44,857 nucleotides of DNA, from assembly GCA_963848635.1 (NCBI GenBank), contig CAWKEA010000009.1:1-44857 (forward strand). Direction: 5' to 3'. Shown here piece by piece: positions 1 through 28,844 of this stretch. The notes below the pieces were generated by a model. It had not been told where the DNA came from and did not search any database. It worked only from the letters and a program-made list of their open reading frames with translations. The stretch is from an uncultured bacterium. GTDB lineage: Bacteria > Patescibacteriota > Minisyncoccia > Phycocordibacterales > PALSA-1337. The translations under genes were made by a program, and so were the position numbers. Position 1 is the first letter of the stretch; each line of letters begins with the position of its first letter.

Positions 1-192
1 CGCAAAAAAGTGAAATCGCATTCCGTGGGCGAAATCGCACCATCGCAAACCACAAGTGGAGGGCGGGGCGGAATTCCTCCCCAGACCCCTCCTTCCGCCC
101 CGCCCGCTTCATTGCTGGATTTTTTTGGGATTTTCGGAATCAGGGCAAAGGGCGCACGAGGCGAAAAAACGAGGACGCGGTCGCGGACGAGT
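1..192 (-). repeat. inverted repeat IR-A, left copy (reverse complement of 1893-2084); encodes the recombinase C-terminal tail
   Basis: By-eye alignment: base x pairs with base 2085-x, with about 3-4 mismatches over ~190 nt. Similarity decays beyond ~192. Confidence 0.9.
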
Positions 193-1553
193 GGGTTCGA
201 ACCGACCTTTTGGAAAAAAGATCGTATTTTCGCAGTATCGGTACTCTCCGCCAAAATAGCGGCCTGTTTACAGTCGTTAAAAAAATTTATCACTGGTTCG
301 AACCGAATCGTCGAGACACGCGACAAACTGCTTAATTTGTCCGTAAGCGTGTGCTTTTCAGTCACAAGTTTGTTTTTAGCATTTTGATATTCTGGAAGCG
401 TCAGCACGTTCTCTAGGTATGCTGTCATAAGTTTGTCTAGCTTGACTTCAATCTCCGAAATTTCAGCATCAACTTTATCCGTCTGATTTTTCAAAAGTTT
501 GTCATTTTCAGTCCGATCTTTTTCAGTCTCGGCAATGAGCCAATCAGCAACGGCATCCGACAAGGAATGTTCCTTCAAAGCCGTCTGAATCTGCGAAGTT
601 ATAATTTCCTCACGGACATATTTCTGTGAGCAGACGCCTTTCCGTTTTGTGCATCGTAAATAGTTATGACCTTTTTGCGTTTCGGTAGTAATGAAGCATC
701 CGCACTCGGCACAGTGAAATAGTCCGCGATACGCATACGACTTCAATTCTTTTGTTTTCGGTTTGGATTTTCGCAACATAACCTCCTGAACATCATCAAA
801 GAGCTTTTTTGAGATGATAGGCTCGTGCTTACCTTCGTAAAATTCTCCACCATAGCGGATCAATCCATGGTAAAAAGGATTTTTCAAAAGATACTGATAG
901 TTAGAAATGGACAGCACCCCATCACCAGAGCCCTTGAGGCCTAGGTCGTTAATTTTTCGGCGTACCTGAGCGAATGTGAAGTTACCCGTGGCATATGCCT
1001 CGAATGTCTTTTTTACTAACACCGATTTCACCGGATCGACAACGATAGTTTTTATCTTTTTATCATTCAAATATCCAAGCGGAGCTTTCTGTGGCCAAAT
1101 TCCGTTTTTGAGTTTTTGCCTGTGCCCGCGTTTGATGTTTTCTGACAGATTGTCGACATAGTATTTACTCTGGCCAAAGGAAATTGAAAGCATGAATTTA
1201 CCCTGCGGAGTGGCGTCAAACCAGAATGTAGGAAATTTCAAGTCGGTGATTTTGCCGGTATCTACAAGATATATAATCCGTCCTCCATCAACTGAATTGC
1301 GAGCGAGTCTGTCTGGATGCCAAGCCAGTATTCCAGAAGCTTCTCCAGCTTCTATACGATCCAGCATATCTGCGAATATCGGCCTACCAGGCACTTTAGC
1401 AGTCTGTTTCTCTATGAAAGTGTCAACGACATCAATTTTCTCCTTTCTAGCAAGCTCGCGTAGCTCCGCTAGCTGATCAGGCAAGCTTCTTATCTGGTGA
1501 TCTTTGTCATCAGTGGATTTTCGAGCATAAATAAAATATTTTTTATCACTCAT
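1..1553 (-). CDS. large serine recombinase; the gene's 3' end runs off the left edge of the window
   Basis: Absent from the ORF track because there is no stop inside the window. Manual minus-strand translation from the ATG (1553-1551) gives MSDKKYFIYARKSTDDKDHQIRSLPDQ...GILAWHPDRLARNSVDGG...FHCAECGCFITTETQKGHNYLRCTKRKGVC...coiled-coil...FQKVGSNPLVRDRVLVF, open down to base 1. It shows the catalytic Ser motif (YARKST), DRLARN and a Cys-rich zinc ribbon typical of large serine recombinases. Confidence 0.85.
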   Translation of the reverse strand, partial: MSDKKYFIYARKSTDDKDHQIRSLPDQLAELRELARKEKIDVVDTFIEKQTAKVPGRPIFADMLDRIEAGEASGILAWHPDRLARNSVDGGRIIYLVDTGKITDLKFPTFWFDATPQGKFMLSISFGQSKYYVDNLSENIKRGHRQKLKNGIWPQKAPLGYLNDKKIKTIVVDPVKSVLVKKTFEAYATGNFTFAQVRRKINDLGLKGSGDGVLSISNYQYLLKNPFYHGLIRYGGEFYEGKHEPIISKKLFDDVQEVMLRKSKPKTKELKSYAYRGLFHCAECGCFITTETQKGHNYLRCTKRKGVCSQKYVREEIITSQIQTALKEHSLSDAVADWLIAETEKDRTENDKLLKNQTDKVDAEISEIEVKLDKLMTAYLENVLTLPEYQNAKNKLVTEKHTLTDKLSSLSRVSTIRFEPVINFFNDCKQAAILAESTDTAKIRSFFQKVGSNPLVRDRVLVFSPRAPFALIPKIPKKSSNEAGGAEGGVWGGIPPRPPLVVCDGAISPTECDFTFL

Positions 1554-1559
1554 GAATAT

Positions 1560-1585
1560 ATTTTACCATTTTTTCGTTAAGTCAA
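1560..1585 (-). promoter_or_regulatory. candidate promoter of the recombinase gene (TTGACT, then TGgTAAAAT extended -10); probably a leaderless or very short-leader mRNA
   Basis: The minus strand reads cTTGACTtaacgaaaaaaTGgTAAAATatattcATG. The -10 ends 6 nt before the ATG. Confidence 0.3.
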
Positions 1586-1658
1586 GAAGTATTTTTCCAA
1601 AAAAATCTGTGCGTAAGCGGTGCACAACGTGCTCCGCTACGCTTTCACAACGTGCTCT

Positions 1659-1834
1659 GTCGAGAAGCGGTCGACTTCCGCTTCTCTCATCAACCGTTCT
1701 TCGCGCCTCGCACACATCGGTATGTCGAGAGCGCACCCCTGTTGCGACTAGCAACTGGGGGAATGCGCGGAGACATACGGGTGTGTGCGTAGGCGCGCCA
1801 CTAAACCATCGTGGAAGCGGAAGTGGGCCGCTTC
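1659..1834 (+). repeat. structured element E1: conserved 5' hairpin block, ~100 nt rod-like variable hairpin, conserved 3' hairpin
   Basis: 5' hairpin gagaagcgg/ccgcttctc (1662-1686). Central stem 1703-1726 pairs with 1772-1796 and has nested inner stems. 3' hairpin gaagcgg-aagtggg-ccgcttc (1814-1834). Both end blocks recur at 8583-8725. Confidence 0.75.
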
Positions 1835-1892
1835 GAACAACTGCGATGATTGCGATTTGTGTTTGCGATGAAAAAACAGCCGGTGAGAAACC

Positions 1893-2084
1893 TCTGGTCC
1901 GCGACCGCGCCCTCATTTTTTCGCCTCGTGCGCCCTTTGCCCTGATTCCGAAAATCCCAAAAAAATCCAGCAATGAAGCGGGCGGGGCGGAAGGAGGGGT
2001 CTGGGGAGGAATTCCGCCCCGCCCTCCACTTGTGGTTTGCGATGGTGCGATTTCGCCCACGGAATGCGATTTCACTTTTTTGCG
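1893..2084 (+). repeat. inverted repeat IR-A, right copy; a duplicated, inverted copy of the recombinase gene's 3' end
   Basis: The + strand translates to PLVRDRALIFSPRAPFALIPKIPKKSSNEAGGAEGGVWGGIPPRPPLVVCDGAISPTECDFTFL, nearly identical to the recombinase tail encoded at 1-192 on the minus strand. Confidence 0.9.
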
Positions 2085-2330
2085 GCAGTTTTTACTTGAA
2101 GTTCGAACATTTTTCGCTGAAAATCCGCAGGCGTGATTGTTTCGTGAATGAAATGCGGAGTCGCTTCGCTCCACTGTTTTTTGCCTCCGCCGGCTCGATC
2201 TTTTGATCGCATCGCAATCACAAAAAGGTGGAGAGGGCGGACGGAGGACTGGGGTGTGGGGGAAGGACTCCGTCCGCCCTCACTATTTGTTTTGGTCGCG
2301 CGCCGGATTGGTGATTGGGGGGGGTGGGTT
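2079..2330 (+). repeat. inverted repeat IR-B, left copy (reverse complement of 8783-9032); contiguous with IR-A right copy
   Basis: By-eye alignment shows ~10 mismatches in ~250 nt plus a homopolymer length difference (G8 here, C6 in the partner). Contains a perfect 14-bp hairpin, 2233-2246 with 2268-2281. Confidence 0.9.
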
Positions 2331-2373
2331 AGGTTACTTTTTGAGGTGTGGATTTGGCGGTATTCCTTTAATT

Positions 2374-2390
2374 GGGGGGGGTGATATACT
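2374..2390 (+). promoter_or_regulatory. G8 tract abutting an extended -10 (TGaTATACT) upstream of the giant surface-protein gene
   Basis: attGGGGGGGGTGATATACT lies 64 nt upstream of the ATG at 2454. No convincing -35 was found. Confidence 0.4.
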
Positions 2391-2453
2391 AGTAAGTAAG
2401 CAATTACAAAGTGCGAAATCACGCAATCACAAATATTACAAACTTTTAATAAC

Positions 2454-5400
2454 ATGACCCATAAACGCCATGCGATTCACGAGAGAGAGAGAGAGAGAGT
2501 AGAAGCTCCCTCTAAAATAGCTAAAAAGATTTTTCTGTGGAGCACGTTCCTCTTAGGAATTTTTTGTGTATTGGTTTTTCCTACTAAGAGTTTCGCGAGT
2601 AATGTTTGGATTCAGAGAACAGTTCCCGGAACTCCGATAATAAATAGTATTACCAATTCTTCGGACGGTAATACTATTTACTTGGCAACTGCTTCTTCAA
2701 GCACCTCTACCGGATACATTTATATCTCGACAAATAACGGAGTCAGTTTCGCTTCAAGTACCAATAATGCTGGTATTCATAGGTGGGCATCCATTACATC
2801 TTCGGGAGACGGGACTAAGGTATATGCGGCAACAGTGTGTTCAGTCTCTGCGAATTGCGGTGGCACGGCTGATTATGTATACACCTCTACGAATAGCGGT
2901 ATAACATGGAACAACCTTACATCTCTAGGAACAGCTTTAGATTGGGTCAGCGTCTCAACTTCAAATGACGGCACGAAAGTGATTGCGCAAGATAACAGCA
3001 CCCATACGTACGTCTCGGCCAACAGCGGTGCTTCATGGGCCACGACTACAGGTATCGGTAATGGCAATGTGAGCGTGTCTCCTGACGGCACAATGTTCGT
3101 GGCCACCGATAGCTCCGGTAATGTGTACGTTTCGACAAATAATGGCGCATCATGGGCGACCACGACAGCTGCAACTGTGGGAGGAGCAGTTAGATTTGTT
3201 GTTGCTACGAACGGGAATATCATATACAAGAGCGGGTATCCATACGTATATAAGTCAACGAACGGAGGCGCTTCGTGGTCAGCATTGACTGCTGTCGGAT
3301 CTACTACCTGGGCAAACATATCGGCATCTTCCGATGGCAGTCATGTCGTTGTCGCCGGGGCAAACGGCATAGATAACTTTGCATACTTGTCAGCCGACGG
3401 AGGTGCCACATGGACTTTCTATAACAATGGGCTAGGCTGGGTCTTTGCATATGCCCAAGACGGAACAAAAATCGCGGCGGCGGCAGGCAGTGCAGTGTAC
3501 GTCAATAGTCCTGTGCCGACGGTTACTACTGCGGCGGCATCGAGTATAACGGCAACAGGGGTTACTTTGAATGCCACACTCGTCTATGACGGCGGTGCCG
3601 CAGTCTCATCAACAACTGTTGAAGGTTTCAATTATGGTCTTACCACAACGTACGGTTCGGCTACTTCTACTACTGGTACGACAACGCCTGGTGCATGGTC
3701 GCAGACAGTAACAGGATTGACTTGTAATACCGTCTACTATTTCCAGTCATATGCCACCAATATTAACGGAACTGGTAATGGAACCGGGTCATATTTCAAG
3801 ACATTGCCGTGTTCCAGCAATTTTTCAATCGATCGTAGCTCGATACCAACTTCTGCGACGACCGTGATCAATCTGACTGGAAATGCTACCGGCTGGACAG
3901 CCGGAACTCCGGGCACTCCAACATTTTCAGTTTCCGGAGTTACCGGCGCATCGATATCATCTCAAACAGTATCTGATGCGACGCACGCATCGCTATCGAT
4001 AGTTACCGGTACTGCCACGGGTACATTGACAATCACTGATCCGAGTCACAGCACCACACAAACCACTCTCGTGAGCCAAGCCACGAATGTTATTGCGCCA
4101 GATGCAACGGGTATATTTCTCACTCCTGGTAGCTACGATTCAGGGACCTATGTCCAATGGGAACATACTGCCGCAGGGGCAAAGTTTAATTTCACGGGAG
4201 GCATTCTGAAAGCTGATTTGGATGAGAGCCTCTTGGTCAATGTCGGACGAGCCAAAGCCAGTTTCCCGTATATCAACTGGCGCGTTGACGGAGGATCATG
4301 GCAACGTACGCAAGCGTATCCAGATTCAACAACAACGCAAGTAATGACGTTGGCAACGGGGCTATCGACCACAACGACCCATTCGGCTGAAGTCCGTTTC
4401 GAGCAAGGGTCTGAAACTGATACTTGGACTCCACAGGATGCAGTCAACCTTACAGGCTGGGAAGTACAGAGCGGAAGCGCGATATCCGCGCCTTCGCCTG
4501 AAGCCAGCACTACTGTTTCAGCCGCGGGCGTTTCGTTGGGACTTCGACCGAAACGCATGATGATTTTTGGAGATTCGATAACGCGCGGATACAATGCAGA
4601 GTCCAGTTCGACCGCACCAGGACAAGATCTTACAGGGGCAGGACATACATTCGCGCTTGATAGCTGGGGACCATTATTTGCTCAAGCCCTAGACGCTGAA
4701 GTAGGCATCGTAGCATATAGCGGTCAAGGTTGGCGTCACTTTATGACCAATGGCGGACCGGCATTCCCCGTCTCATATCCGATGTATGATTCTACGCACT
4801 CAAGGACGATGCCCTCAAATCTTGACTATGTGGTTGTAGCGCTGTCGGTAAATGATAGTACCGCATATAACATGGCCAATACTGTCTCTACGTGGCTTAC
4901 AAATGTCCGTGCCGCAGTAGGAGCAAGCACGTATATATTTGTAGCGCCAAACTTAGGCGATGTAAGTTCGACAATCGTCAACAATGTCGACTCGGGAGTA
5001 AATGCATATAAAGCGGCAAATCCCACAGATACGAAGGTATTCATAATTGATCCGGGAGGTAATTTCATGGGCACGCCACCAGGGACATATTGGTATCAGG
5101 GCACCGTGCATCCTAACAATCTCGGTCATGCCCTGCTCGCTTCTGACTTAGCAACTTTGGCCGTTGCCGATGTGCCGACGGTCATATCTAGCATCGCCTC
5201 AAGCACTACGAGCACGAGTGTTACGATCACCTGGACGACAGACAGGGCGGCTACGAGTCTTGTAAATTATGGCACGACCGCATCATATACAGCCTCGTCA
5301 ACATTCAGCGGAAGTCTGACACTCTCTCACAGCGTGACCATATCTAGTCTCTCGCCTTTGACGACGTATCACTTCCAGATATCTTCGATCGATACCGCTT

Positions 5401-7436
5401 CATCAACAGCAACCTCCAGCGATCTTACATTCACGACACCCTCTAGTGTCACTGCTCCGACGCTTCTAGTGCCCACATTCTCCGGCGTGACCCAAACCGG
5501 AGCTACCGCTTCAAGCACGATCAGCGCGACAGGAGGAGCAAACGCGACTGTTGAAGGTTTTGCTTGGGGCACAAATACCTCGTATGCTCTCGGCACCACT
5601 TCATCGAGCGGTTCATTCGGAATATCGGATTTCTCGAATGCCACAACCACTCTTACTTGCGGCACTACTTACCATGTCCGCGCTTACGCCACCAACTCCG
5701 GAGGTACAGGATATAGCTCTGACGCAAGCACGACAACAAGCCCATGCAATGCCACGACATATACTTTCACTGGACCATCGAATGGTAACGCCGGGAGCGC
5801 ATCTACCATCTTCACCGTGACGCCAAATGGGCCATATAACAGCACGATCACCCTGACACCGACGGGAGGTTTCGGCCTTTCTCCAACTATATTGACATTC
5901 TCAAACTCAAGCGCTCCGCAAACTTTCACCATCACCCCGACAGTCGCAGGCTCGATCACTCTCACACCTACCGACAATGGAGGACTGACTGATGCTTCAC
6001 CGCTCACCTATACGGCTAACGCTGTTGTTCCCGGACAACCGACTTCTGTCACCGCCGCAACCTCAACTCCGAATCAGGCCACGGTCACCTTCTCCGCTCC
6101 AGGATTTAATGGCGGTTCTACCATCCTCTACTACCTCGCCTCCTCAACCCCAGGCAATTTCACGGGAACTTCAAGCGGTGCCCCCATCGTCGTCTCGAGC
6201 CTCACGAACGGCACTTCATATACCTTCGCCGTCTACGCCGTGAATGCGGCCGGCACGAGCACTCCTTCTTCGGCTTCCAATGCAGTGACACCTATCGGCG
6301 TGCCCGGCGCTCCGACGGGAGCGGTCGCCACAGCCGGCAATACCCAGGCGGTAGTTAACTTTAGCGCACCAGGGTCGACCGGCGGCAGTCAGATCACCGG
6401 CTATACAGTGACATCAAGTCCTGTCGGAGGCACTGATACTAATGCAGGTACGACTGCTCTCACCCATACCGTGACGGGCCTCGCTAATGGAACGCCGTAT
6501 ACTTTCACTGTGACTGCCACCAATGTCGTCGGTACAGGAAGTGCTTCCAGCGCATCATCTCCGGTTACTCCTTCTACTGTTGCGGCCGTGTCAACTAACG
6601 TGGTTACAAACATCGCTTCAACCAGCGCGACATTGAGCGGTTCGATCACTTCGACCGGAGGTGCCGATGCTAATCAACATGGTTTTGCTTACAGCACCGA
6701 TCAGAATCTGATAAGTTCCGTTTCCACGACGACGTTAGGTTCGTTCACAGGTACGGGTACCTTCACGAGTTCCGTGACCGGACTTACGTCTAATACCACC
6801 TATTATGTGCGCACATATTCCGTCAATGCTTCAGGCACGACCACTGGCTCAATCATCTCCTTCCTGACCTTGCCTGCGGTTCCAACCATGACCACTCAAA
6901 CTCCAACAGCTGGATCAGGCATCTTCTTCACGGCTAATGGAAACATCACCGCGACTGCTGTGAATGCCACTGCCCGTGGCTTCGTCTATGGCACTACTCT
7001 GGCATACGGAGCGACCACAACCTCAAGCGGCTCATTCGGCACGGGCGCCTACACCGCTACGATCACCGGCCTTACTTGTAACACGCTCTATCATATCGCT
7101 TCATACGCCGTGAATACCGGAGGCACAGGCTATGGTTCTGATCAAACTATCACGACCGGTGTATGTACGAAGCCGACATTGACCGTGCAAGTGGCTTCTG
7201 GCATTACGACGACTGCGGCTACTCTAAACGGCTCCATGACCGCTGACGGCAACGCCTCCTCTACAGTTGAAGGATTTAATTGGGGTACGGACACCAGCTA
7301 CGGTCAGGTAGCCTCCGCCAGCGGAACCTTCGGCATTGGATCTTTCTCGCAATCGTTGTCTAGTCTGACTTGCGGCACGACATATCACTTCCAAGTCTAT
7401 CGCTACCAACATCGCAGGACAGGGGACCTCGACTGA
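2454..7436 (+). CDS. giant cell-surface protein: N-terminal signal anchor, BNR/Asp-box (sortilin-like) beta-propeller repeats, SGNH/GDSL hydrolase domain and many FN3-like repeats. It is truncated by a frameshift and continues in ORF 7549-7938.
   Basis: Repeated S-x-(D/N)-x-G-x-(S/T)-W motifs (YVSTNNGASW, YTSTNSGITW, YKSTNGGASW, LSADGGATW). GDSL block MMIFGDSITRGYN and block V GTVHPNNLGH. At least 10 repeats of the type VEGFxWG...Y....S..G.F.....GLTCxTxYHxxAYATNxxGTGY, plus classic FN3 (PGxPTxVTA...FTV.A.N..G). Confidence 0.85.
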   Translation: MTHKRHAIHERERERVEAPSKIAKKIFLWSTFLLGIFCVLVFPTKSFASNVWIQRTVPGTPIINSITNSSDGNTIYLATASSSTSTGYIYISTNNGVSFASSTNNAGIHRWASITSSGDGTKVYAATVCSVSANCGGTADYVYTSTNSGITWNNLTSLGTALDWVSVSTSNDGTKVIAQDNSTHTYVSANSGASWATTTGIGNGNVSVSPDGTMFVATDSSGNVYVSTNNGASWATTTAATVGGAVRFVVATNGNIIYKSGYPYVYKSTNGGASWSALTAVGSTTWANISASSDGSHVVVAGANGIDNFAYLSADGGATWTFYNNGLGWVFAYAQDGTKIAAAAGSAVYVNSPVPTVTTAAASSITATGVTLNATLVYDGGAAVSSTTVEGFNYGLTTTYGSATSTTGTTTPGAWSQTVTGLTCNTVYYFQSYATNINGTGNGTGSYFKTLPCSSNFSIDRSSIPTSATTVINLTGNATGWTAGTPGTPTFSVSGVTGASISSQTVSDATHASLSIVTGTATGTLTITDPSHSTTQTTLVSQATNVIAPDATGIFLTPGSYDSGTYVQWEHTAAGAKFNFTGGILKADLDESLLVNVGRAKASFPYINWRVDGGSWQRTQAYPDSTTTQVMTLATGLSTTTTHSAEVRFEQGSETDTWTPQDAVNLTGWEVQSGSAISAPSPEASTTVSAAGVSLGLRPKRMMIFGDSITRGYNAESSSTAPGQDLTGAGHTFALDSWGPLFAQALDAEVGIVAYSGQGWRHFMTNGGPAFPVSYPMYDSTHSRTMPSNLDYVVVALSVNDSTAYNMANTVSTWLTNVRAAVGASTYIFVAPNLGDVSSTIVNNVDSGVNAYKAANPTDTKVFIIDPGGNFMGTPPGTYWYQGTVHPNNLGHALLASDLATLAVADVPTVISSIASSTTSTSVTITWTTDRAATSLVNYGTTASYTASSTFSGSLTLSHSVTISSLSPLTTYHFQISSIDTASSTATSSDLTFTTPSSVTAPTLLVPTFSGVTQTGATASSTISATGGANATVEGFAWGTNTSYALGTTSSSGSFGISDFSNATTTLTCGTTYHVRAYATNSGGTGYSSDASTTTSPCNATTYTFTGPSNGNAGSASTIFTVTPNGPYNSTITLTPTGGFGLSPTILTFSNSSAPQTFTITPTVAGSITLTPTDNGGLTDASPLTYTANAVVPGQPTSVTAATSTPNQATVTFSAPGFNGGSTILYYLASSTPGNFTGTSSGAPIVVSSLTNGTSYTFAVYAVNAAGTSTPSSASNAVTPIGVPGAPTGAVATAGNTQAVVNFSAPGSTGGSQITGYTVTSSPVGGTDTNAGTTALTHTVTGLANGTPYTFTVTATNVVGTGSASSASSPVTPSTVAAVSTNVVTNIASTSATLSGSITSTGGADANQHGFAYSTDQNLISSVSTTTLGSFTGTGTFTSSVTGLTSNTTYYVRTYSVNASGTTTGSIISFLTLPAVPTMTTQTPTAGSGIFFTANGNITATAVNATARGFVYGTTLAYGATTTSSGSFGTGAYTATITGLTCNTLYHIASYAVNTGGTGYGSDQTITTGVCTKPTLTVQVASGITTTAATLNGSMTADGNASSTVEGFNWGTDTSYGQVASASGTFGIGSFSQSLSSLTCGTTYHFQVYRYQHRRTGDLD
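2480..2498 (+). repeat. (GA)9 dinucleotide microsatellite inside the 5' coding region of the giant gene
   Basis: cacGAGAGAGAGAGAGAGAGAGta encodes HERERERV. It sits between the start codon and the signal-anchor helix. Confidence 0.95.
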
Positions 7437-7548
7437 CCAATCGGTCATAACTTCGGCGTGCCCTGTAACTGCCACGCCTACAGTTACCACAAGCGTCAGC
7501 TCCGGAGGAGGCGGCAGTGCCTCAAGCCAAGTTTCTAATCTTCTCTCC

Positions 7549-7938
7549 ATGGGCTTCACCTCTCTGGCCCAACAAGTTGCCAAGCAATACGGCTTGACGA
7601 TCCCGAACACACCAGAGACGGTCCCATCGACGCCATCCACTCCGATAGCTCCTGCATCAGGAGGCCAGTCGTTCACTCGAACGTTGAGAGTCGGCGTGAC
7701 AAACACTGACGTCAAAAGACTGCAGATCTTCCTGAATCAGCAAGGCTTCACGGTCGCCAAGAAGGGCGCTGGCTCTCCTGGACACGAGACGACCTACTTT
7801 GGCCCGGCTACCAAAGTGGCTCTTATGAAATTCCAGCTTGCTTATAAATCACAGACTCTCGACCCGCAAGAACTGAAAGCACCAACAGGGTTTTTCGGAG
7901 TGGATACGATGAAGGCGGTGAACAAGTTGGTGAAGTGA
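7549..7938 (+). CDS. peptidoglycan-binding (PG_binding_1-like) domain protein; almost certainly the displaced C-terminus of the giant protein
   Basis: LRVGVTNTDVKRLQIFLNQQGFTVAKKGAGSPGHETTYFGPATKVALMKFQ matches the PGB1 pattern. This frame is open back to 7402, where it continues the FN3-like repeat consensus (YATNIAGQGTSTDQ). Confidence 0.8.
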   Translation: MGFTSLAQQVAKQYGLTIPNTPETVPSTPSTPIAPASGGQSFTRTLRVGVTNTDVKRLQIFLNQQGFTVAKKGAGSPGHETTYFGPATKVALMKFQLAYKSQTLDPQELKAPTGFFGVDTMKAVNKLVK

Positions 7939-7947
7939 CAAATATAT

Positions 7948-8520
7948 ATGGATGACGATCAAACTCCAGATGTAGCAGTCACACCTACGGCAGAAGCCCA
8001 AACTCCTGAAACACCCATTTCTAGCCAGCCCACAGCATCCACGCCAGTCGATATGCCACCAGAGGCCCCAGAATCGCCTACAAACGCTTCTACAAACGTT
8101 CCTGTAGAAAGTCAAAATGAAGGGTTAAATCAGCCAGAAAGCGAGGTGCCGGAATCATCGAATGAGGCTCCAAATTTGCAGCCAGTTCCCGTTGAGTCAG
8201 CGCCAGCTCCTGCGTCCGCGCCGGCGTCACTGACTCCGTTAGCACCACAGCCGCAGTCGCCGGCGCAACAAGATCAAACCGGCTTCATTCGCGCGTTGCT
8301 CGCCAAAGCTCAAGCTAAAATCCAGTCCAACAAACAGAAGAAGTTCGACAAAATCATCCAATACGCACAGAAAATGAAAATTATTGCCAACGAAGATATG
8401 CAGAAGCTTTTGCACATCTCCAGCGCTACTGCGACCCGATATCTGGTCAAACTAGTCCAGCAAGGTCGTCTGGCTCGCGTGGGGAACCCCCGCGATGCCA
8501 AATATCAATTCATGCGCTAG
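7948..8520 (+). CDS. hypothetical protein with a P/S/T/E/Q-rich disordered N-terminal half and a C-terminal winged-helix HTH
   Basis: The C-terminus reads IANEDMQKLLHISSATATRYLVKLVQQGRLARVGNPRDAKYQF, an HTH/wHTH pattern as seen in Fic-associated or DeoR-like DNA-binding domains. Confidence 0.6.
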   Translation: MDDDQTPDVAVTPTAEAQTPETPISSQPTASTPVDMPPEAPESPTNASTNVPVESQNEGLNQPESEVPESSNEAPNLQPVPVESAPAPASAPASLTPLAPQPQSPAQQDQTGFIRALLAKAQAKIQSNKQKKFDKIIQYAQKMKIIANEDMQKLLHISSATATRYLVKLVQQGRLARVGNPRDAKYQFMR

Positions 8521-8524
8521 AAAA

Positions 8525-8554
8525 CTTGTGGCTCATGTCCACCAAATGAGCCAC
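8525..8554 (+). repeat. hairpin repeat hp1 (cttgtggctcat-gtccaccaa-atgagccac), direct repeat of 8750-8779
   Basis: 9-bp perfect stem immediately after the stop of ORF 7948-8520, so it may double as a terminator stem. Confidence 0.8.
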
Positions 8555-8582
8555 GTGCGTTTCTGATTTACCACCGAACTCG

Positions 8583-8725
8583 GTCGAGAAGCGGCCGACC
8601 TCCGCTTCTTCCATCAACCGTTCTTCGCGTCCGGCGGAATGTCGGTGCGGCGAAATGCAATGAAGCCGCACGGACTGACGCTGGACGCGTCACATTCCTC
8701 CGTTGAAGCGGAAGTGGGCCGCTTC
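8583..8725 (+). repeat. structured element E2, same family and same orientation as E1
   Basis: The 5' 47 nt has 43/47 identity to E1 1659-1705. The last 22 nt is identical to the E1 3' end. The ~68 nt core is unrelated to E1 but self-complementary (cgcgtcc/ggacgcg; gtcggtgcggc/gccgcacggac). Confidence 0.75.
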
Positions 8726-8749
8726 AAGCTTCAAAACCTGTGCTAAAAT

Positions 8750-8779
8750 GCTTGTGGCTCAATTCCACCAATTGAGCCA
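8750..8779 (+). repeat. hairpin repeat hp2 (cttgtggctcaat-tccacc-aattgagccac)
   Basis: Direct repeat of hp1, on the other side of E2. Confidence 0.8.
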
Positions 8780-8782
8780 CAC

Positions 8783-9032
8783 CCTTCCCCCCAATCACCA
8801 ATCCGGCGCACAGCCAAAACAAATAGTGAGGGCGGACGGAGTCCTTCCCCCACACCCCCAGGCCTCCGTCCGCCCTCTCCACCTTTTTGTGATTGCGATG
8901 CGATCAGAAGATTGAGCCGGCGGAGGCAAAAAACAGTGGAGCGAAGCGACTCCGCATTTCATTCACGAAACAATCACGCCTGCGGATTTTCAGCGAAAAA
9001 AGTTCGAACTTCAAGTAAAAACTGCCGCAAAA
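8783..9032 (-). repeat. inverted repeat IR-B, right copy
   Basis: Reverse complement of 2079-2330. Carries the same 14-bp hairpin (8828-8841 with 8864-8877), followed by a T5 run on the + strand. Confidence 0.9.
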
Positions 9033-9392
9033 TAATGAACCCGAGCTATGCGAGGGTGAATTTATTTTGCGTGAGAGAGCGATGCGACTGCTCGCATCGC
9101 GTGATGGGATTCGAAAAGGTTCTCCCAAATTTTCGAAAAGTGAGCGTAGCGAGCTTTGAGAAAATGGGAAACCTGTACTGAAGCCGTAGGCTTCGAATCC
9201 CATCCTCTCCGCACTTGGATTTTGGTATCGGATGACCCTGAGGGCTATGTAAAACAAGGGTCGTTTGGAATCGTTCGAATCCCGCAAAGGTACACCCCTC
9301 TGCGGGATTCGAACTTTTAGCTGAAGTATCCTCTTTTAGAGCAGACATCATCCTTTAAATATAGTCAAAAATATGCTAGGTTAAGTCCAATT

Positions 9393-9953
9393 ATGCTTCT
9401 AAAAAGAATCAGAGAAATATCGAATATCGGAAGATTCTGCAGCTGCAAAGGCATCGCTGGTATTGAATTTTCTCCAGTGACGATAATCTTTGCCAATAAT
9501 GGAAATGGCAAAAGTACCTTTACGAGCATCCTCAGATCATTTCAAACGGGAAACAACAATATCCTCATCGGCAAAAAGACCTTGGGTAGCAGCGGTTCTA
9601 AAAAAGTCGAGATTGACTTTGAGGACGCAGGAAAAACACTGACGGCAAAGTTTGAGAACAAGAAATGGAATAGCACCCCAGATGAGAAGATTCATATTTT
9701 CGATACCAAGTTCATAGCTGAGAATGTCTACGATGGAGAGAATATGGATGATGACCACAAGGCAAACATGCATCGTGTCGTTGTCGGCGCCGAAGGTAAA
9801 AAATATGCCGAAGCAGTAAATGATTTCATGGGGCAGGTGAAAAAATGCGAGCAAACCAAAAAAGATTCTTCTTTACAATACTCCGCATCTCCATTCTCCA
9901 GAATATATACGATTGAAAAATTCATCGCGTTGTCAAAGAATACACATGTTTGA
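9393..9953 (+). CDS. AAA_13-type (RloC/PrrC-like) ATPase, N-terminal fragment with Walker A
   Basis: VTIIFANNGNGKSTF is a Walker A motif. The N-terminal layout matches AAA_13 ATPases. It ends at a stop overlapping the next ORF in another frame. Confidence 0.7.
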   Translation: MLLKRIREISNIGRFCSCKGIAGIEFSPVTIIFANNGNGKSTFTSILRSFQTGNNNILIGKKTLGSSGSKKVEIDFEDAGKTLTAKFENKKWNSTPDEKIHIFDTKFIAENVYDGENMDDDHKANMHRVVVGAEGKKYAEAVNDFMGQVKKCEQTKKDSSLQYSASPFSRIYTIEKFIALSKNTHV

Positions 9954-11671
9954 AAGATATTGAGGGAAAAAGAAAGGAGCTACAGTTCGCCAATCAATTC
10001 AATAAACCCGCTGACCTGAGACTCAAGTCTCCTGACCTTTCAGCGATCACGACAACACTAGAGAAGAAGATTGATTCCTTGCATGACGACGTAGAAAAAA
10101 AGATAAAGAAACATGTGGAAAAGCATACATCTGTACCCGATGTCGGCCTACCTGTACTCAATACCATCAACAATATCAGAAAGGGTGATGCATGCCCTTT
10201 CTGCGGGCAAGACACGTCAGCGGTCTCCGATCTCATGGATGCCTACCGAGTGTACTTCGATAAATCGTACCAAGACCTCCAAAAGGAAATCGCTGAGACT
10301 CTAGCTGAATTCAAGAGTTGGGATATTGACGGCGAATTAAAGATTCTTCTCCAAGAGATCGAGGAATGGCATAAAATATTAAATAGCCAAGACTTATATG
10401 ACAAGCTCGTAGCACGTATCAAGGCAAGTGCTCTCAAGAAAAATAAGGCTAATTTATTGCTACAGATAGAAAAGAAAAGTAAGGATTTCAATTATAAGGT
10501 GCCTCAAGGTTCGATTGATCTTGTCTCTGAAAGTATATCTCAAGTCCAAACCGAGATTGCTGCATACAATGCCACTATCGGCGCTTTCAAGGGAAAGATT
10601 AGCAGTAAAAAGCCTGATGAGCTCGAAAAAGAATTACAGATACTCGAAATCGCAAGGGATCGCCATTCTACGAAGTGGGACACTTTCTGTGGAAATTATA
10701 TTAAAAATGAAGAGGCTACCAAGAAAATAAAAGCCGGCCGTAAAAAAGCTATGGACGATTTGTCGGCATATTCTCAAAAGACTTTTGCAGCATATCAATC
10801 TTCTATCAATACTGTACTGGAAAATATCGGGGCTGACTTCAAGATAAAGGATTTGTCGGAGCAGAAAGACCTCAGAAAAGCAGAGGCCATATTCTGCGGT
10901 TTTGCTCTGGAATTTTTTGGTCAACACAAGGTCGACATCTCTAATTCCGATGATAAGCCGCATTTCAAAAATACCCTCAGTGAGGGCGATAAAAGCTCCT
11001 TGGCTTTCGCGCTCTTTATTTCAATCCTTTCACACAATGACAAACTCAAAGGCTGCATGGTTGTCTTCGATGATCCTATCTCTAGCTTTGATGCTGACAG
11101 GAAAAAAGCTACGGCAAAGTTGCTATTTTCACTTACGAATAGCAAAGGAGATAAACCAGCTCAGATCATTGTGCTTACTCATGAATCTGGCTTCTTGGTC
11201 AGACTGAATAAAGAATTCGGCGGTGACGCTCTTTACCTGAAAATAGCACCCAATGGTCTGAGTGGAGTAATCAAGCAGAGCAATATCGAGCGACTCGATG
11301 TGTATGAGGCCTTCCTAAAGCCGGGAGCTTTTGAGGCGCTAGATAAAATCAAGAAATGCCTCGATGGTACCACCGTCATCGATAAGAAATCTCATAGCGA
11401 ATGCCGTACGATCCTAGAGAATGCCCTAGAGGCGAAATATTATCTTGAACTTAAGGACAATATCTCGAAACATGCCGGATTGGGTGGCTATATCGATACT
11501 CTTACTACGGCAGGTCTAATGAGTCAGGCGCTTAGTACTGAATTCAAAAAACTGCTCCCCGATTTACACGAGCCACACCACAGTACTTCAGATGCTAGCA
11601 CTCAAGCTAATTCGGATGGAGATATCAAAAATATTCTAAAAACCTCACTCAGTCTATTAAAGAAGTTGTAG
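9950..11671 (+). CDS. AAA_13-type (RloC/PrrC-like) ATPase, C-terminal 573 codons: zinc-hook-like CPFC in a coiled coil, ABC signature, Walker B, and a possible anticodon-nuclease-like tail
   Basis: GDACPFCGQD; long coiled-coil region; LSEGDKSSLAFALF (signature-like); CMVVFDDPISSFD (Walker B); VLTHES (H-loop). The C-terminal CRTILENALE...LPDLHEPHHS resembles the R-x3-E...H pattern of PrrC/RloC nuclease domains. The only available start is TTG. Confidence 0.7.
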   Translation: MKDIEGKRKELQFANQFNKPADLRLKSPDLSAITTTLEKKIDSLHDDVEKKIKKHVEKHTSVPDVGLPVLNTINNIRKGDACPFCGQDTSAVSDLMDAYRVYFDKSYQDLQKEIAETLAEFKSWDIDGELKILLQEIEEWHKILNSQDLYDKLVARIKASALKKNKANLLLQIEKKSKDFNYKVPQGSIDLVSESISQVQTEIAAYNATIGAFKGKISSKKPDELEKELQILEIARDRHSTKWDTFCGNYIKNEEATKKIKAGRKKAMDDLSAYSQKTFAAYQSSINTVLENIGADFKIKDLSEQKDLRKAEAIFCGFALEFFGQHKVDISNSDDKPHFKNTLSEGDKSSLAFALFISILSHNDKLKGCMVVFDDPISSFDADRKKATAKLLFSLTNSKGDKPAQIIVLTHESGFLVRLNKEFGGDALYLKIAPNGLSGVIKQSNIERLDVYEAFLKPGAFEALDKIKKCLDGTTVIDKKSHSECRTILENALEAKYYLELKDNISKHAGLGGYIDTLTTAGLMSQALSTEFKKLLPDLHEPHHSTSDASTQANSDGDIKNILKTSLSLLKKL

Positions 11672-11684
11672 CCACATGTTGTAC

Positions 11685-12152
11685 TTATCTGATGAATTCT
11701 TTGAGCAGGGTCAGATATTTTTCTTGTAGCTCTTTACTCACCATTTTTTCAGATAGTCGCATTGGAGTAACGTTGTCTTTCATCAAGTCAGTACAAAAAT
11801 CAAAATAAAATCCTGAGGGTGTTGCGATAAATATGTGGGCAAGTTTCCAACGCTCATAAATTTCTGTCGCATTCTTTTTGATGTCATCCATATCGACATG
11901 TGATCTATACTTCACCTCAACCAAAGAGACGGATTTCGGGTTATGCGATACGAGTGCAAAATCGGGGGCGTTCCTTACGTTTTCCAGAAGCTTCTTGTAT
12001 TCAGGTGTCCCTGTGTACTGCATTAGTTCGGGGACGATTGTCTCATAGCCAAATGGGATAACAGTGTAGTTGCCTGTGTCACGGAACATTTGGTCAAAAA
12101 TAAGTTCAGCTATTTTTCCCTTAATGAGTTGTTTGGAGAAGTCTTTTTGCAT
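11685..12152 (-). CDS. small PD-(D/E)xK-fold nuclease-like protein
   Basis: GKIAELIFDQMF ... PDFALV ... VSLVEVKYRS fits the E...PD...(D/E)xK restriction-endonuclease-like motif order. Confidence 0.55.
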   Translation of the reverse strand: MQKDFSKQLIKGKIAELIFDQMFRDTGNYTVIPFGYETIVPELMQYTGTPEYKKLLENVRNAPDFALVSHNPKSVSLVEVKYRSHVDMDDIKKNATEIYERWKLAHIFIATPSGFYFDFCTDLMKDNVTPMRLSEKMVSKELQEKYLTLLKEFIR

Positions 12153-12254
12153 GATGTTTATTATACCTCATCATATAATAAAAGTATGAGGGAGCATCCT
12201 TGCCCGCCCTCTTTTTTATTGACCTTACCCTCGCCTCGGCATAGAATAGATTTC

Positions 12255-13850
12255 ATGTCTAATCCTGATACAAATAATGATACAGAAAATCCCCCTGTTA
12301 TTTTGGTAGACGGCAGCCTTTCAAAAGAGCGCTGTGAATTTTTGCTCTCATACCTAGGAAGCGAGAGCGATAAGCTTGAACGAAAGGAGTTCGGAGTTCC
12401 AGCTTCGTCATCAGAAAAGAGCCAGCTGGCCAAGGCCATAATTGCCATGGCTAATTCTGATGGCGGATATATTCTCCTTGGCATTAATGATGCCAAGGTT
12501 GTAAAAGGTATCAGGAACGTCGATCTGGATCCAGCTAAGATTAATGATCTCGCATCTTCTTTTGCCAAACCAGAAATAAAGAATCTGACCACAGTCGTCT
12601 ATGAAAAGGACGCCCTCAAGGTAGGTATCATCTTTGTGCCTCCGAGCGACAATGTTCCACATATTACGATCAAGGAGAGTGATAAATTGAATAAGAATGT
12701 TATCTATGTAAGGCACTCTGGACAGTCTGAGCCTGCGAACCATGAGGACATGGAAAAGCTGATACTGAAGGCGGTTATAAAAAGACAGAAAGAATTGATG
12801 CGTCATCTTGAGGAGACAGAGTTGCAAAAGGATGTCCGCATGATCAAGGAGCATCTACTTGGGAAAAAGGAGGCCGAGAAGCCTGATTTTTTGGTGGTCG
12901 ATGAAGAAGCTTTTGTGGCTAAGATTGATGCGCTGTTCACTGATGAAAATATCTCATCGATTAAAAAGGTCATAAAGCAGCTTTCCAAGGAGATAGTTTC
13001 GGTGTGGAAGTCCACCAAGGGCATGGATAAATCTATCGTGCTCGAGACGAAAGTCCTACGCTTCATTCCGTTGCTCAACAAGCTCACCTACGTGATGATA
13101 TTGGCGGTTGAAAATAAGATGCACGAGAAAATATTTCCTGACTGGGCGGAGGCCGTTCGTATCATATATGAATTATCAAATAAGAAGGATCTCGGCATTT
13201 CACAGATCGATGAATGGGTAACACAAGGAAACCAATTCATCAAAGCGAAAGATCACCTGACGTATACGGTTCCCGAAAAAGAAGTCATTAGCAGACTGCA
13301 TATTTTGTCGGCCTACGCTTTTAAACGCAAGGAGTATTCTTTGATTAAAAAGATAGCTGATATAGAGGTTGAGACGGTTCATGGGAACAAGTCCTATAAT
13401 GAGGCTGTCATGATGCACCCCAATTATTCACATGGTAGTGGTGAAGGAAACCTCGTCACGCTTTTTGATGAGGCAAGGGAGTTGATGACACAGAATGTAA
13501 TCTTTTTTAATTTTTTCGATAATGAGATTGAGGAGAGTTTGGACAGTCTACTTAGGGCAGATCTGCTTATTGGGTTTTCCTATTCCTTAGTTAGTCAAGT
13601 TAGACATAGCGGACATCGTCATTTTATTAATTTTGCTCGTTTTTATCCGTCGCGAGTCTGGTCGCTCATTGAAAGCATGCGTGACAATCAAAAGTATCTG
13701 ACTGATGGATTCCCAACCTATACCTTGGAGCAATTAAAAAAATACATCAATGAAGTCATTGATTTCGCGAATAAAGCGTACCCAATGATAAGCGACTGGG
13801 GTGGCTATACTTACAAGGATCTTTTTCCAGATAAAGCTGCCACTCAGTAG
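12255..13850 (+). CDS. Schlafen/AlbA_2-like (divergent AAA, putative nucleic-acid-binding) domain protein with an unknown ~350 aa C-terminal region
   Basis: SESDKLERKEFGV...SQLAKAIIAMANSDGGYILLGINDAKVVKGI matches the AlbA_2 core (E.K....l.k.i.AfaN..GG.l.iGv.d.g.v.G). The ORF is open from 12090, but that part overlaps the divergent gene, so ATG 12255 (MSNPDT) is preferred. Confidence 0.6.
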   Translation: MSNPDTNNDTENPPVILVDGSLSKERCEFLLSYLGSESDKLERKEFGVPASSSEKSQLAKAIIAMANSDGGYILLGINDAKVVKGIRNVDLDPAKINDLASSFAKPEIKNLTTVVYEKDALKVGIIFVPPSDNVPHITIKESDKLNKNVIYVRHSGQSEPANHEDMEKLILKAVIKRQKELMRHLEETELQKDVRMIKEHLLGKKEAEKPDFLVVDEEAFVAKIDALFTDENISSIKKVIKQLSKEIVSVWKSTKGMDKSIVLETKVLRFIPLLNKLTYVMILAVENKMHEKIFPDWAEAVRIIYELSNKKDLGISQIDEWVTQGNQFIKAKDHLTYTVPEKEVISRLHILSAYAFKRKEYSLIKKIADIEVETVHGNKSYNEAVMMHPNYSHGSGEGNLVTLFDEARELMTQNVIFFNFFDNEIEESLDSLLRADLLIGFSYSLVSQVRHSGHRHFINFARFYPSRVWSLIESMRDNQKYLTDGFPTYTLEQLKKYINEVIDFANKAYPMISDWGGYTYKDLFPDKAATQ

Positions 13851-13866
13851 GAAATAGGCCGTATTA

Positions 13867-14343
13867 TCAACCGATGGTGATGATCTTGTTCGTCACCTTG
13901 ATCTTCGACTTAAAGCACCCCATAAGCTCGCGTTTCTCCTCGTTGGTGCCATCGTGCAGGATATATTTGGCATAGGTCTTGAGGTCGATTTCTCTATGTT
14001 TTGAGGTCGGGTCATTGATACCTAGCACTCCTCGGTTGAATCTGTTGTGTCGTTTCAGCTCCTCATTGAATTTTATCTCCACACCCGTCTGATTGAGGTC
14101 GATTTGATCCATAAGCTTCACGAGCTGTTCCGTCAATTCTTCTTCTCGCAGATACTGGGCCTTGCATGTACGATCCTTCGATCTGCCACATCCGTAGTAG
14201 ATGTATTTGGCGACAGTACCATCTTTCAGTTGCTTGTATTTCTCCTCGGCAGTGATACCTGAGTCACAGTGTCCGCATACCATGAGCTTGGTGAAGGCGA
14301 ACTCATGACTTTGATTGTTCCGAAAGTAAAAATTTCTTTACTT
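13867..14343 (-). pseudogene. 5'-truncated large serine recombinase remnant (zinc ribbon + coiled coil + C-terminal tail only)
   Basis: FAFTKLMVCGHCDSGITAEEK...YIYYGCGRSKDRTCKAQYLREEEL... is collinear with residues ~285-end of the intact recombinase at 1-1553. The reading frame opens only at 14343 and there is no catalytic N-terminal domain. Confidence 0.75.
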
Positions 14344-19799: not shown

Positions 19800-20357
19800 T
19801 TAGTTGCCAGCGGTAGGACAAGTCGAGGAAGAGTGTGCGATGGCTGATGGATTCGTATTTCCTGTCGAATCGATGCAGAAATATTTGGTGCTGCTCACCA
19901 GCTGGCCATATATAGCAAATGAAATTACGTTCGGACTCGCTACGCCTCCTGTGGTGCTGTTCGTACCGACGAATATTTGTATCGCTCCGCCCTGCGAGAC
20001 GGCATCGTTCCATTGTGTTGCCAGATTTGCGCTAGCGGCTGTTGTTGTGGCGGCGGCAGGGCTACCAGCGGTGTACCCGGAGTTGCTTATTGTAAAGCTT
20101 CCACCAGCGGGACTGCCAGCGGTGGCTCCATAAAGATCAGTATAAACCGAGCTATTCTGCCCAGTCGAAAGAATATTACGGATCTGTTGAACGTCAGCGA
20201 CGACACGGGTATCCGATCCTCTTTTTCGGGCTGATTGCAAGCTTGCCAAAATGATCGCTGACAGCAAACCTATGATGGCGATGACGACAAGCAGTTCTAT
20301 CAAGGTAAAAGCGCTGTCTTTCTGCGCAGGACCTTTTTTCTTTTGAGAGGGAGACAT
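19800..20357 (-). CDS. type IV pilin-like protein (prepilin N-terminal cleavage/methylation domain)
   Basis: FTLIELLVVIAIIGLLSAIILASLQSARKRG. The C-terminus is paralogous to ORF 28347-28844. The ORF is open to 20399, but a TATAAT at 20402-20407 (minus strand) argues for ATG 20357. Confidence 0.8.
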   Translation of the reverse strand: MSPSQKKKGPAQKDSAFTLIELLVVIAIIGLLSAIILASLQSARKRGSDTRVVADVQQIRNILSTGQNSSVYTDLYGATAGSPAGGSFTISNSGYTAGSPAAATTTAASANLATQWNDAVSQGGAIQIFVGTNSTTGGVASPNVISFAIYGQLVSSTKYFCIDSTGNTNPSAIAHSSSTCPTAGN

Positions 20358-20490
20358 TTTTATTAATGCTGATTTATTAATGTTTAAAACGACGTGCATA
20401 GATTATACAACACTTGCGCCTCAAATAATATATCTGGGGTATTGATATTCAGCCGGGTGGAGGAGTTTCACTTTTGCCATGTACAGTAAT

Positions 20491-28346: not shown

Positions 28347-28844
28347 ATGAAAAGAAAAAATGTAAAAGGCGGTTTCACCCTCATCGAATTGCTCGTCGTC
28401 ATCGCCATCATCGGTATATTGTCCTCGATCGTCTTGGTCAGCTTGCAGTCAGCTAGAAAGAAGGGTACTGATACGCGTGTTATCGCAGACGTTCAGCAGA
28501 CTCGCGACGCTCTTGAGACTGGCTATACTGGTACTTATTATCCTGATTTGGGCAACAATAACTCGAATGCTGTGGTTGCAAGTAATTCGTCGTGTACTAT
28601 CGCCAATTGGAACAATGACACTGCCTCTCAAGGTTCAGCATTGAATACGCAACTCGGAGATGCTTGCGCACAGGGCGGCACAAATGATATTAGTATATTT
28701 GTAGCACCTGTTACTGCCTATAATACCGTAAATGCCTACGCTATCTATGGTAAGCTTGTCAGTAGCAGTAACTATTTCTGCATCGATTCAACAGGCAAGA
28801 CTAATCCTGCTACGAGCACCAACGCAGGTATCACCTGTCAGTAG
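28347..28844 (+). CDS. type IV pilin-like protein
   Basis: MKRKNVKGGFTLIELLVVIAIIGILSSIVLVSLQSARKKG: G/F cleavage site and Glu at +5. Confidence 0.88.
   Translation: MKRKNVKGGFTLIELLVVIAIIGILSSIVLVSLQSARKKGTDTRVIADVQQTRDALETGYTGTYYPDLGNNNSNAVVASNSSCTIANWNNDTASQGSALNTQLGDACAQGGTNDISIFVAPVTAYNTVNAYAIYGKLVSSSNYFCIDSTGKTNPATSTNAGITCQ

Follow-up and report, generated by a model that had tools for sequence, protein, structure and literature searches.

Related systems and the locus under study

The gene for the serine DNA invertase Hin lies within its own invertible segment. The yeast 2-micron plasmid has two long identical inverted repeats, each with a target for the tyrosine recombinase Flp, which split two unique regions, and its isomers are equimolar. 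The serine invertases of the Hin/hix, Gin/gix and Pin systems are small recombinases with sites of ~26 bp and a Fis-dependent enhancer (PMC3798978). Large serine integrases discriminate between attachment sites of phage type (attP) and bacterial type (attB) on the basis of a zinc-domain motif that is ~5 bp further inward in attB than in attP (PMC3783163). SSV1-type "suicidal" tyrosine integrases of archaeal viruses and plasmids have the attachment site in their gene, and are exclusive to archaea according to a review (PMC8371274). Here we analyze a locus that resembles each of these systems in part. It lies at the start of contig CAWKEA010000009.1 (assembly GCA_963848635.1), a stretch of 44,857 nucleotides (nt) from an uncultured member of the Patescibacteriota that we call the window, and consists of a large serine recombinase gene bracketed by inverted copies of its own 3′ end, with further repeats and cargo genes beyond.

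In our reading, to which we assign a probability of roughly three in four, the repeat around the recombinase gene (inverted repeat A, IR-A) is half of a duplicated attachment-site region, and positions ~1-9028 are a ~9-kb integrative element that is mobilised by its own large serine recombinase. A second inverted repeat, IR-B, adjoins the right IR-A arm and brackets a giant surface-protein gene. The features concerned are the following.

1-1553, minus strand: large serine recombinase gene; start codon at 1553-1551, 517 codons without a stop, running off the left window end
1-211, minus strand: gene-side arm of IR-A (arm A); last ~70 recombinase codons, and putative element-side half of the junction with an off-window target
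61-105, minus strand: hairpin of arm A; 13 bp, G+C-rich, GGGCGGGGCGGAA-19 nt-TTCCGCCCCGCCC; twin at 1980-2024 in arm A′
1655-1834, no strand: E1, a long, imperfect palindrome situated between arm A′ and the start of the recombinase gene; its ends recur as a direct copy at 8579-8725
1874-2084, plus strand: upstream arm of IR-A (arm A′); inverted recombinase 3′ end without a consistent start codon of its own; tblastn match to residues 448-517 at 90%
2082-2085, plus strand: GCGG, core of the internal A′/B site, taken as the crossover region
2086-2322, plus strand: proximal arm of IR-B; encodes a peptide and a stop; hairpin at 2235-2279; nhmmer match to the B profile with E=6e-16
2454-8520, plus strand: cargo segment (Pfam), encoding a 1660-residue surface-type, a 129-residue peptidoglycan-binding and a 190-residue winged-helix protein
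8579-8725, no strand: E2, the second E copy, on the inner side of the distal B arm
8787-9028, minus strand: distal arm of IR-B (8787-9024) with core (9025-9028, CCGC on the plus strand); far junction x/B
9029-9392, no strand: host flank x; first 11 nt like the end of arm A, the rest unique; T-arm-like GGATTCGAA motifs

In its enzyme and its logic of integration, the locus is a large serine integrase system like A118/LI, phiC31, Bxb1 and SPbeta SprA, with which it shares the domain set, a short core, a half-site motif shifted by 5 bp and variable cargo. What is unusual is the position of the core in an open reading frame (ORF), a predicted C-terminal helix across that core, and an internal inverted attP-type copy with long repeats that are kept identical. 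Unlike in the known integrases, the putative crossover core lies within the integrase reading frame, a second complete attP-type site appears to lie inverted inside the element, and the flanks of the core are repeated, nearly identically, over 120-210 nt (A) and 200-300 nt (B). In addition, no directionality factor is evident, and solved integrases are only very remotely similar (E about 1e-5).

For an attachment site within a gene, the SSV-type suicidal integrase is the nearest analogue. In both cases the site is in the integrase gene, which integration changes or, at our locus, would change. However, the SSV1-type enzymes are tyrosine integrases of archaea whose gene is split into two substantial parts, whereas the present enzyme is a bacterial serine integrase that would exchange only its last 15-19 codons, and an intact spare 3′ end stays in the element. 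As in the Hin, Gin and Pin switches, inverted recombination sites bracket the recombinase gene, but those switches occur in both orientations, in contrast to a ratio of 96 to 1 among the loci studied here. Moreover, the recombinase is a large one of more than 517 residues, the arms measure 120-211 nt and the outer half-sites differ from each other. Thus, neither a small recombinase with short sites nor the presence of both orientations across assemblies, as expected of an invertase switch, is seen; likewise, the target-site duplication and transposase of an insertion sequence are lacking, the enzyme being a large serine recombinase. The 2-micron plasmid offers a different parallel. If circularised, the element would be divided into a recombinase segment and a cargo segment by two identical inverted A+B repeats of 320-500 nt, and in both systems the repeat copies are kept identical. 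By contrast, the plasmid uses the tyrosine recombinase Flp in a eukaryotic host, whereas here the circle is a predicted form and the integrated copies show no isomers.

The recombinase and inverted repeat A

By its domains, the encoded protein is a large serine recombinase with a catalytic domain, a recombinase domain and a zinc ribbon with coiled coil. It matches the Pfam families Resolvase (PF00239, 1e-20, residues 7-152), Recombinase (PF07508, 1.6e-13) and Zn_ribbon_recom (PF13408, 3.3e-7) as well as the PHROG integrase family phrog_95 (5e-78, residues 3-449). The catalytic residues S13, R11, D81, R82 and R85 are invariant in 56 homologues. An AlphaFold2 model of one homologue (P0006) has long helices at 333-380 and 386-416, then a linker of low confidence (478-509) and a helix at 511-530 that spans the junction, with a predicted local distance difference test (pLDDT) score of about 70-80. 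Relatives of the recombinase number in the thousands, and the closest ones (60-92% identity) all belong to Patescibacteria, or the Candidate Phyla Radiation (CPR). A scan of viral contigs for the family gave a single match, which argues that it is not mainly a phage family. In a scan of positions 1-2600 for promoters and terminators, counts did not exceed those in shuffled sequence, and nothing was found upstream of the recombinase or the cargo.

A repeat search delimits IR-A as 1-211, the reverse complement of 1874-2084, with a length of 211 nt, 95% complementarity and a spacing of 1662 nt; a match of this length is well beyond chance. A preliminary description of the window had given 1-192 and 1893-2084 with 3-4 mismatches, which is correct but slightly short. 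Direct comparison shows the arms to be identical over 1-169, with the first mismatches at 170, 175, 189, 192 and 195 onward, i.e., identity falls off at the inner ends only. The coding content of the two copies was also described correctly: the left one is the 3′ coding end of the recombinase, whose minus-strand ORF runs through 1-211, and the right one encodes the same tail on the other strand, in a plus-strand ORF at 1552-2136 with its stop codon at 2134-2136. Base 1 of the window pairs with base 2084, so the window begins 1 nt short of a complete core. Its left end is a point where an assembly graph branches.

The hairpin in arm A has 13 pairs, and compensatory double changes occur in 4 of them (RNAalifold, 12 relatives). 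Arm A is thus constrained as a nucleic-acid structure as well as an open frame. The loops of this hairpin and of the one in B (2235-2279) are rich in G runs, measure 19-21 nt, resemble each other (GGAGGGGTCTGGGGAGG, GACTGGGGTGTGGGGGAAGG) and have a G-quadruplex-like composition.

Two other explanations of arm A′ were considered and rejected. It is not a relic of a second, decayed recombinase gene: the tblastn match covers residues 448-517 only, the boundary is constant across the family, and the copy is kept identical instead of decaying. Nor is a separate small gene running from A′ into B supported. Reading back from the core, an in-frame stop is reached after 40-112 codons (median ~72), in the relatives usually a few to ~40 codons past the arm, and ATG codons are rare.

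A family of related loci

We surveyed 167 related loci. About 148 of them, from various Patescibacteria and including the chromosome-level records OY969557.1 and OY969413.1, repeat the 3′ end of the recombinase gene in inverted form ahead of the gene; in most loci this copy is 36-320 nt before the start codon. The arms of canonical loci measure 93-212 nt (median 120 nt). Within one locus, the median arm identity is 100%, and the arms are perfect copies in 53% of canonical loci, whereas the same 110 nt compared across loci have a median identity of 58.6%. This contrast indicates that the two arms of a locus evolve in concert. Over the first 120 nt, counted from the outer end, 2-5% of positions mismatch between arms, and the rate then jumps to about 59%. 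Recurrent copy correction of the arms is real.

The family is very common in Patescibacteria, with more than 550 matches in each of two collections. Three copies of the recombinase module occur in OY969557.1, and one 876-kb genome has three copies of the element family. Contigs break at an arm in 103 of the 167 loci, which accounts for the window beginning at the repeat. The cargo varies by locus, and includes defence genes, lipase or surface proteins, and methylases. We found no account of such an architecture or of this CPR family in a literature search. The family is a widespread, apparently undescribed mobile element of the ultra-small Patescibacteria/CPR.

Junctions and half-sites

We sorted the loci by the outer flanks of their arms, using a B profile and tRNA calls from ARAGORN.

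A flanked by a tRNA gene, A′ flanked by B: 73 loci
A flanked by degenerate or other sequence, A′ flanked by B: 23 loci
A flanked by a tRNA gene, A′ flanked by a tRNA gene: 3 loci
A flanked by B, A′ flanked by a tRNA gene: 1 locus (L151, fully resolved)
A flanked by B, contig starting inside A′: 4 loci

In the relatives, arm A abuts the 3′ end of a convergent tRNA gene, with an overlap of a few nucleotides. The tRNA is tRNA-Ser with any anticodon in most loci and tRNA-Gln in several, while tRNA-Lys and tRNA-Arg occur in single loci each, within the window's subfamily. Arm A′ abuts conserved B sequence, whose start resembles the window from 2086 onward (CAGTTTTTACTTGAAGTTCGAAC...AAAATCC). This connection is found in 107 of the 148 loci with a detected repeat, which is nearly all of those that have the outer flank of A′ on the contig. 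About 25 loci with sufficient sequence contain a second, inverted copy of B at a distance of 1.5-8 kb outward. It is 90-100% identical to the first (mostly at least 95%) and encloses the variable cargo. In the window, this is the repeat IR-B of the preliminary description, which is real (2071-2322 versus 8787-9039, 96-97%). The layout of the family consequently reads: host flank x/B, cargo, inverted B/inverted A′, recombinase, A/tRNA 3′ end.

The A/tRNA, A′/B and x/B junctions of each element have only a short core in common. This core is usually GCGG, which forms the last 4 nt common to both arms in 53 of 73 canonical loci. Sixteen of 18 relatives examined at x/B have an unrelated, A+T-rich x with the core alone in common, and in the other two (L039 and L048) the x/B boundary was misplaced. 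In the window, sharing of the core alone holds for A′/B (2082-2085) and x/B (9025-9028), while the third junction is off the window. Three junctions that share nothing but a core, one of them with an unrelated x, are the signature of a site-specific integrative element.

Counted from the point at which the sequences diverge, a TTCGAA-like motif lies at +12 in the tRNA half-site (55 of 66 cases) and at +17 in that of B (48 of 70). Similarly, a register scan of B against tRNA peaks at +5, with a value of 0.40 compared to a background of ~0.23. The 5-bp shift matches the rule by which large serine integrases distinguish attP from attB. B thus behaves as an attP-type half-site that mimics the T-arm of tRNA, and the tRNA end as an attB-type half-site. 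The A′/B region (about 2040-2130) would then be a complete attP-type site inside the element, in inverted orientation.

The preliminary description expected the left copy of IR-A to continue leftward as another IR-B. The family contradicts this idea, since the arm that carries the gene's 3′ end abuts a tRNA 3′ end. Because the five closest relatives (L001, L002 and L089-L091, 77-85% nucleotide identity over the segment) carry tRNA-Ser at the A junction, the left neighbour of the window is probably the 3′ end of a tRNA-Ser gene rather than IR-B. Left of position 1, this reading predicts AGA..GGATTCGAACC, where a continuation as IR-B would read CAGTTTTTACTTGAAG (B).

Some loci have other partners at these junctions. 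In L057, L074 and L078 (also L028), the recombinase module lies between two convergent tRNA-Ser genes with different anticodons. The repeat reaches ~20 nt into both tRNAs, and B and cargo are absent from that place. Such tRNA/tRNA loci suggest that another tRNA gene can serve the internal site as a recombination partner. We also observed a third class of junction partner, in which the core is followed by ..WDDVRT.., ..VEAVRTWY.. or ..DDVRN.., with the spacing of B and a different sequence. These occur in the tails of homologues P0012, P0030, P0044, P0124, P0143 and P0144, and also in L014 and L029. They may represent secondary sites, or B arms that belong to other elements and have diverged.

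The reading frame across the core

In 55 of 56 distinct related loci, no stop interrupts the recombinase frame within the arm; counted over the 56 distinct arms, this frame has 1 stop, compared to 37 and 46 in the others. With the exception of one locus, the recombinase stop lies past the core. The C-terminal peptide therefore depends on what follows the core. Where A is joined to a tRNA gene, the tail is tRNA-antisense sequence (...RRRWDSNP...) of variable length. Where A is joined to B, the tail is conserved, namely [CY]xL[DN][EK][VI]R[TMN][FY]FxxNP followed by acidic residues, and the peptide ends 15-19 codons past the core in 67 of 77 distinct B arms. The B peptide of the window comprises 16 codons (2086-2133, QFLLEVRTFFAENPQA) before the stop at 2134-2136. 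Within protein clusters at 90% identity, the same enzyme is joined at the same point to tRNA, B or B-like partners, and these differing partners point to recent mobility. As in suicidal integrases, the core lies inside the integrase ORF, and integration would alter the gene.

These observations lead to the following model. A/target and x/B would be the two element-chromosome junctions, and A′/B the internal, inverted attP-type site. A circular form with A joined to B would integrate at the 3′ end of a tRNA gene, with a standard crossover of the serine-integrase type in the core. This would swap the last ~16 codons, half of the predicted C-terminal helix, for tRNA-antisense sequence, so that the C-terminus of the enzyme would depend on the integration state. 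A full-length gene would exist only when A is joined to B, i.e., after excision or after a flip of the 1.7-kb segment against the internal A′/B. The arms would be kept identical by recurrent copy correction, with the integrated orientation essentially fixed.

A more specific proposal is tentative, and we consider it possible rather than probable. According to it, the core lies in the gene on purpose. Integration would replace the conserved helix of the episomal A/B form with tRNA-antisense sequence, and this state would set the activity or directionality of the enzyme without a separate factor. The internal A′/B would then serve as a silent spare 3′ end and attP, from which a 1.7-kb flip could rebuild the gene.

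Orientation of the segment and alternative explanations

The preliminary description proposed a potentially self-inverting segment. As a phase switch, the recombinase or homologous recombination would often and reversibly flip the 1.7 kb, aim the gene and its promoter at either the tRNA or the cargo, and toggle the C-terminus. The geometric part of this reading stands. Inversion between the arms would leave an intact ORF, to which the conserved B peptide (16 codons, 2086-2133) would be added, and the inverted gene would indeed face the giant surface-protein gene, as the cargo lies beyond B. Contigs in which the recombinase runs into B also exist. Such junctions occur in L003, L086-L088 and the fully resolved L151, and B-type tails are present in 15 of the 60 best homologues; L003 has co-directional cargo genes directly after the recombinase. 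That the copies interact is clear from their identity within loci, and the frequent contig breaks at arms (103 of 167) could be taken as a point in favour of flipping. However, any repeat longer than the assembler's k would break contigs, and most A/B contigs begin inside the other arm (A′). Judging from assembler behaviour, these contigs may derive from excised circles, or the assembler may have taken an ambiguous path through a collapsed repeat; in L086-L088, for instance, A is joined to distal B beside the winged-helix gene, which fits the junction of an excised circle. The comparison with related genomes that the preliminary description had called for goes against flipping. Among loci resolved on both sides, 96 have the orientation of the window (73 have a tRNA call beside A, and in 23 that flank is degenerate), 1 is flipped and 3 are of the tRNA/tRNA type. 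The only flipped locus has arms decayed to 79%, and flipped and tRNA/tRNA loci together have arm identities of 79-96%. Arms of 120 nt are presumably shorter than common assembler k-mers, so the orientation of such loci is probably unambiguous. Furthermore, attP does not recombine with attL or attR in reactions of canonical large serine integrases (PMC3783163), and the promoter scan was not above shuffled expectation. The ratio of 96 to 1 thus gives no comparative sign of frequent reversible flipping, and the integrated orientation appears to be essentially fixed. Frequent reversible self-inversion is unproven, and we consider it unlikely; the repeat is better understood as half of an integrative element's duplicated attachment site than as a dedicated invertase switch.

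The module A′-gene-A (about 2.1 kb in the window and ~1.6-2.1 kb in relatives) could instead be an autonomous transposon resembling an insertion sequence, with the B-flanked cargo as a separate neighbour. Near-perfect inverted repeats bound the module in nearly all loci, several copies can occur in one genome (three in OY969557.1), and L057, L074 and L078 hold the module alone between convergent tRNA-Ser genes, without B. Yet 107 of 148 repeat-bearing loci connect A′ to B, with an unchanged core and register, and the frame runs from A into conserved B codons, so that B is linked to the gene. The outer flanks are unlike each other (tRNA versus B), which means that no target-site duplication is present, and in the window's subfamily a conserved distal module of winged-helix gene, E2 and B travels along. 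This makes an autonomous module quite improbable. As for an assembly artefact, i.e., a fold-back chimera or contig-end duplication, the window does begin within a repeat that exceeds typical k-mers. The preliminary description had named this among the conditions that would overturn it. It is refuted for practical purposes, because the copies diverge at their inner ends and the same arrangement recurs in ~148 independent assemblies from many projects, chromosome-level records among them; compensatory changes and the open frame also show that the arms are under selection.

Several points weigh against the interpretation as an integrative element. The window lacks the A-side junction, and its tRNA target is assigned by analogy with relatives. 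The circle is likewise a predicted form, and the candidates for its junction, L086-L088, are on contigs that start inside arm A′. No directionality factor was identified for the element. An initial impression of clear dyad symmetry between the end of A and the start of B was not upheld by a register scan, in which the symmetry is weak (peaks of 0.31-0.34 versus a background of ~0.25). Conservation of the B peptide partly overlaps the DNA half-site, such that constraints at the protein and DNA levels are entangled. A circle with two identical attP sites should yield two orientations, and the model does not explain why essentially one is seen (96 versus 1). Finally, the model has no explanation for the arm identity (a median of 100% within loci versus 58.6% between them).

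Cargo, E elements and surroundings

We now note properties of the remaining parts of the window. The largest cargo ORF (2454-7436) encodes the 1660-residue protein, with fn3 repeats and a GDSL lipase domain, and ends about 110 nt before the next ORF. An exact-protein look-up of this protein found no counterpart on record. The 190-residue winged-helix protein has a conserved distal position in the subfamily, and a similar module occurs in L003, L086, L095, L015 and L005. Its exact look-up returned only L084, a 2-kb Logan contig that is 99.8% identical and ends inside the distal B arm; run ERR10755936 contains a 99.8%-identical fragment. L086 has related cargo, in which a GDSL lipase/Peptidase_S74 protein is paired with a Schlafen/AlbA_2 gene.

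The E element is an imperfect palindrome of ~180 nt whose stems read GAAGCGG..CCGCTTC. Its two copies form a direct repeat, and each is inward of an arm. The same pairing, with one copy beside A′ and one beside distal B, is present in L001, L003, L010 and L015.

The host flank (9029-9392) has no match among 83 related loci. At 9180-9330 it has T-arm-like motifs (GGATTCGAA) and a hairpin (TTCGAATCCCGCAG..GCGGGATTCGAA). Scans of the window with ARAGORN and Rfam gave no tRNA and no family at gathering score, with only noise at E<=1. Consequently, these motifs and another at 193-207 are not callable genes. Those in the host flank could be relics of earlier target sites.

Just outside the element, 9393-14283 resembles a defence island.

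9393-9953 and 9950-11671: AAA_13 ATPase, split into two overlapping ORFs
11685-12152: TnsA-like ORF
12090-13850: Schlafen/AlbA_2 protein
13867-14283, minus strand: zinc-ribbon fragment of a different, apparently broken large serine recombinase

The remainder of the window is ordinary chromosome, with genes for purine synthesis, pilins and transporters. Two pilin-like genes with an N_methyl motif, at 19800-20399 (minus strand) and 28347-28844 (plus strand), are inverted relative to each other. They give rise to inverted repeats of 72-78% identity (19849-20314 and 28369-28807) that enclose about 8 kb and are unrelated to the repeats of the recombinase.

Implications

For the insertion of large DNA into genomes, the main tools are large serine integrases, and the control of their direction is an active question. 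If the proposal that the core lies in the gene on purpose is true, this element would be the first case of a serine recombinase in bacteria that parallels the archaeal suicidal integrases, and if the exchanged C-terminus alters activity, it would represent a new, self-contained control of directionality. For studies of CPR genomes, the repeat family is of practical concern, as it fragments assemblies beside tRNA genes. The elements carry defence genes and surface proteins, and are thus a way for genes to move within a group of bacteria for which few mobile elements have been described.

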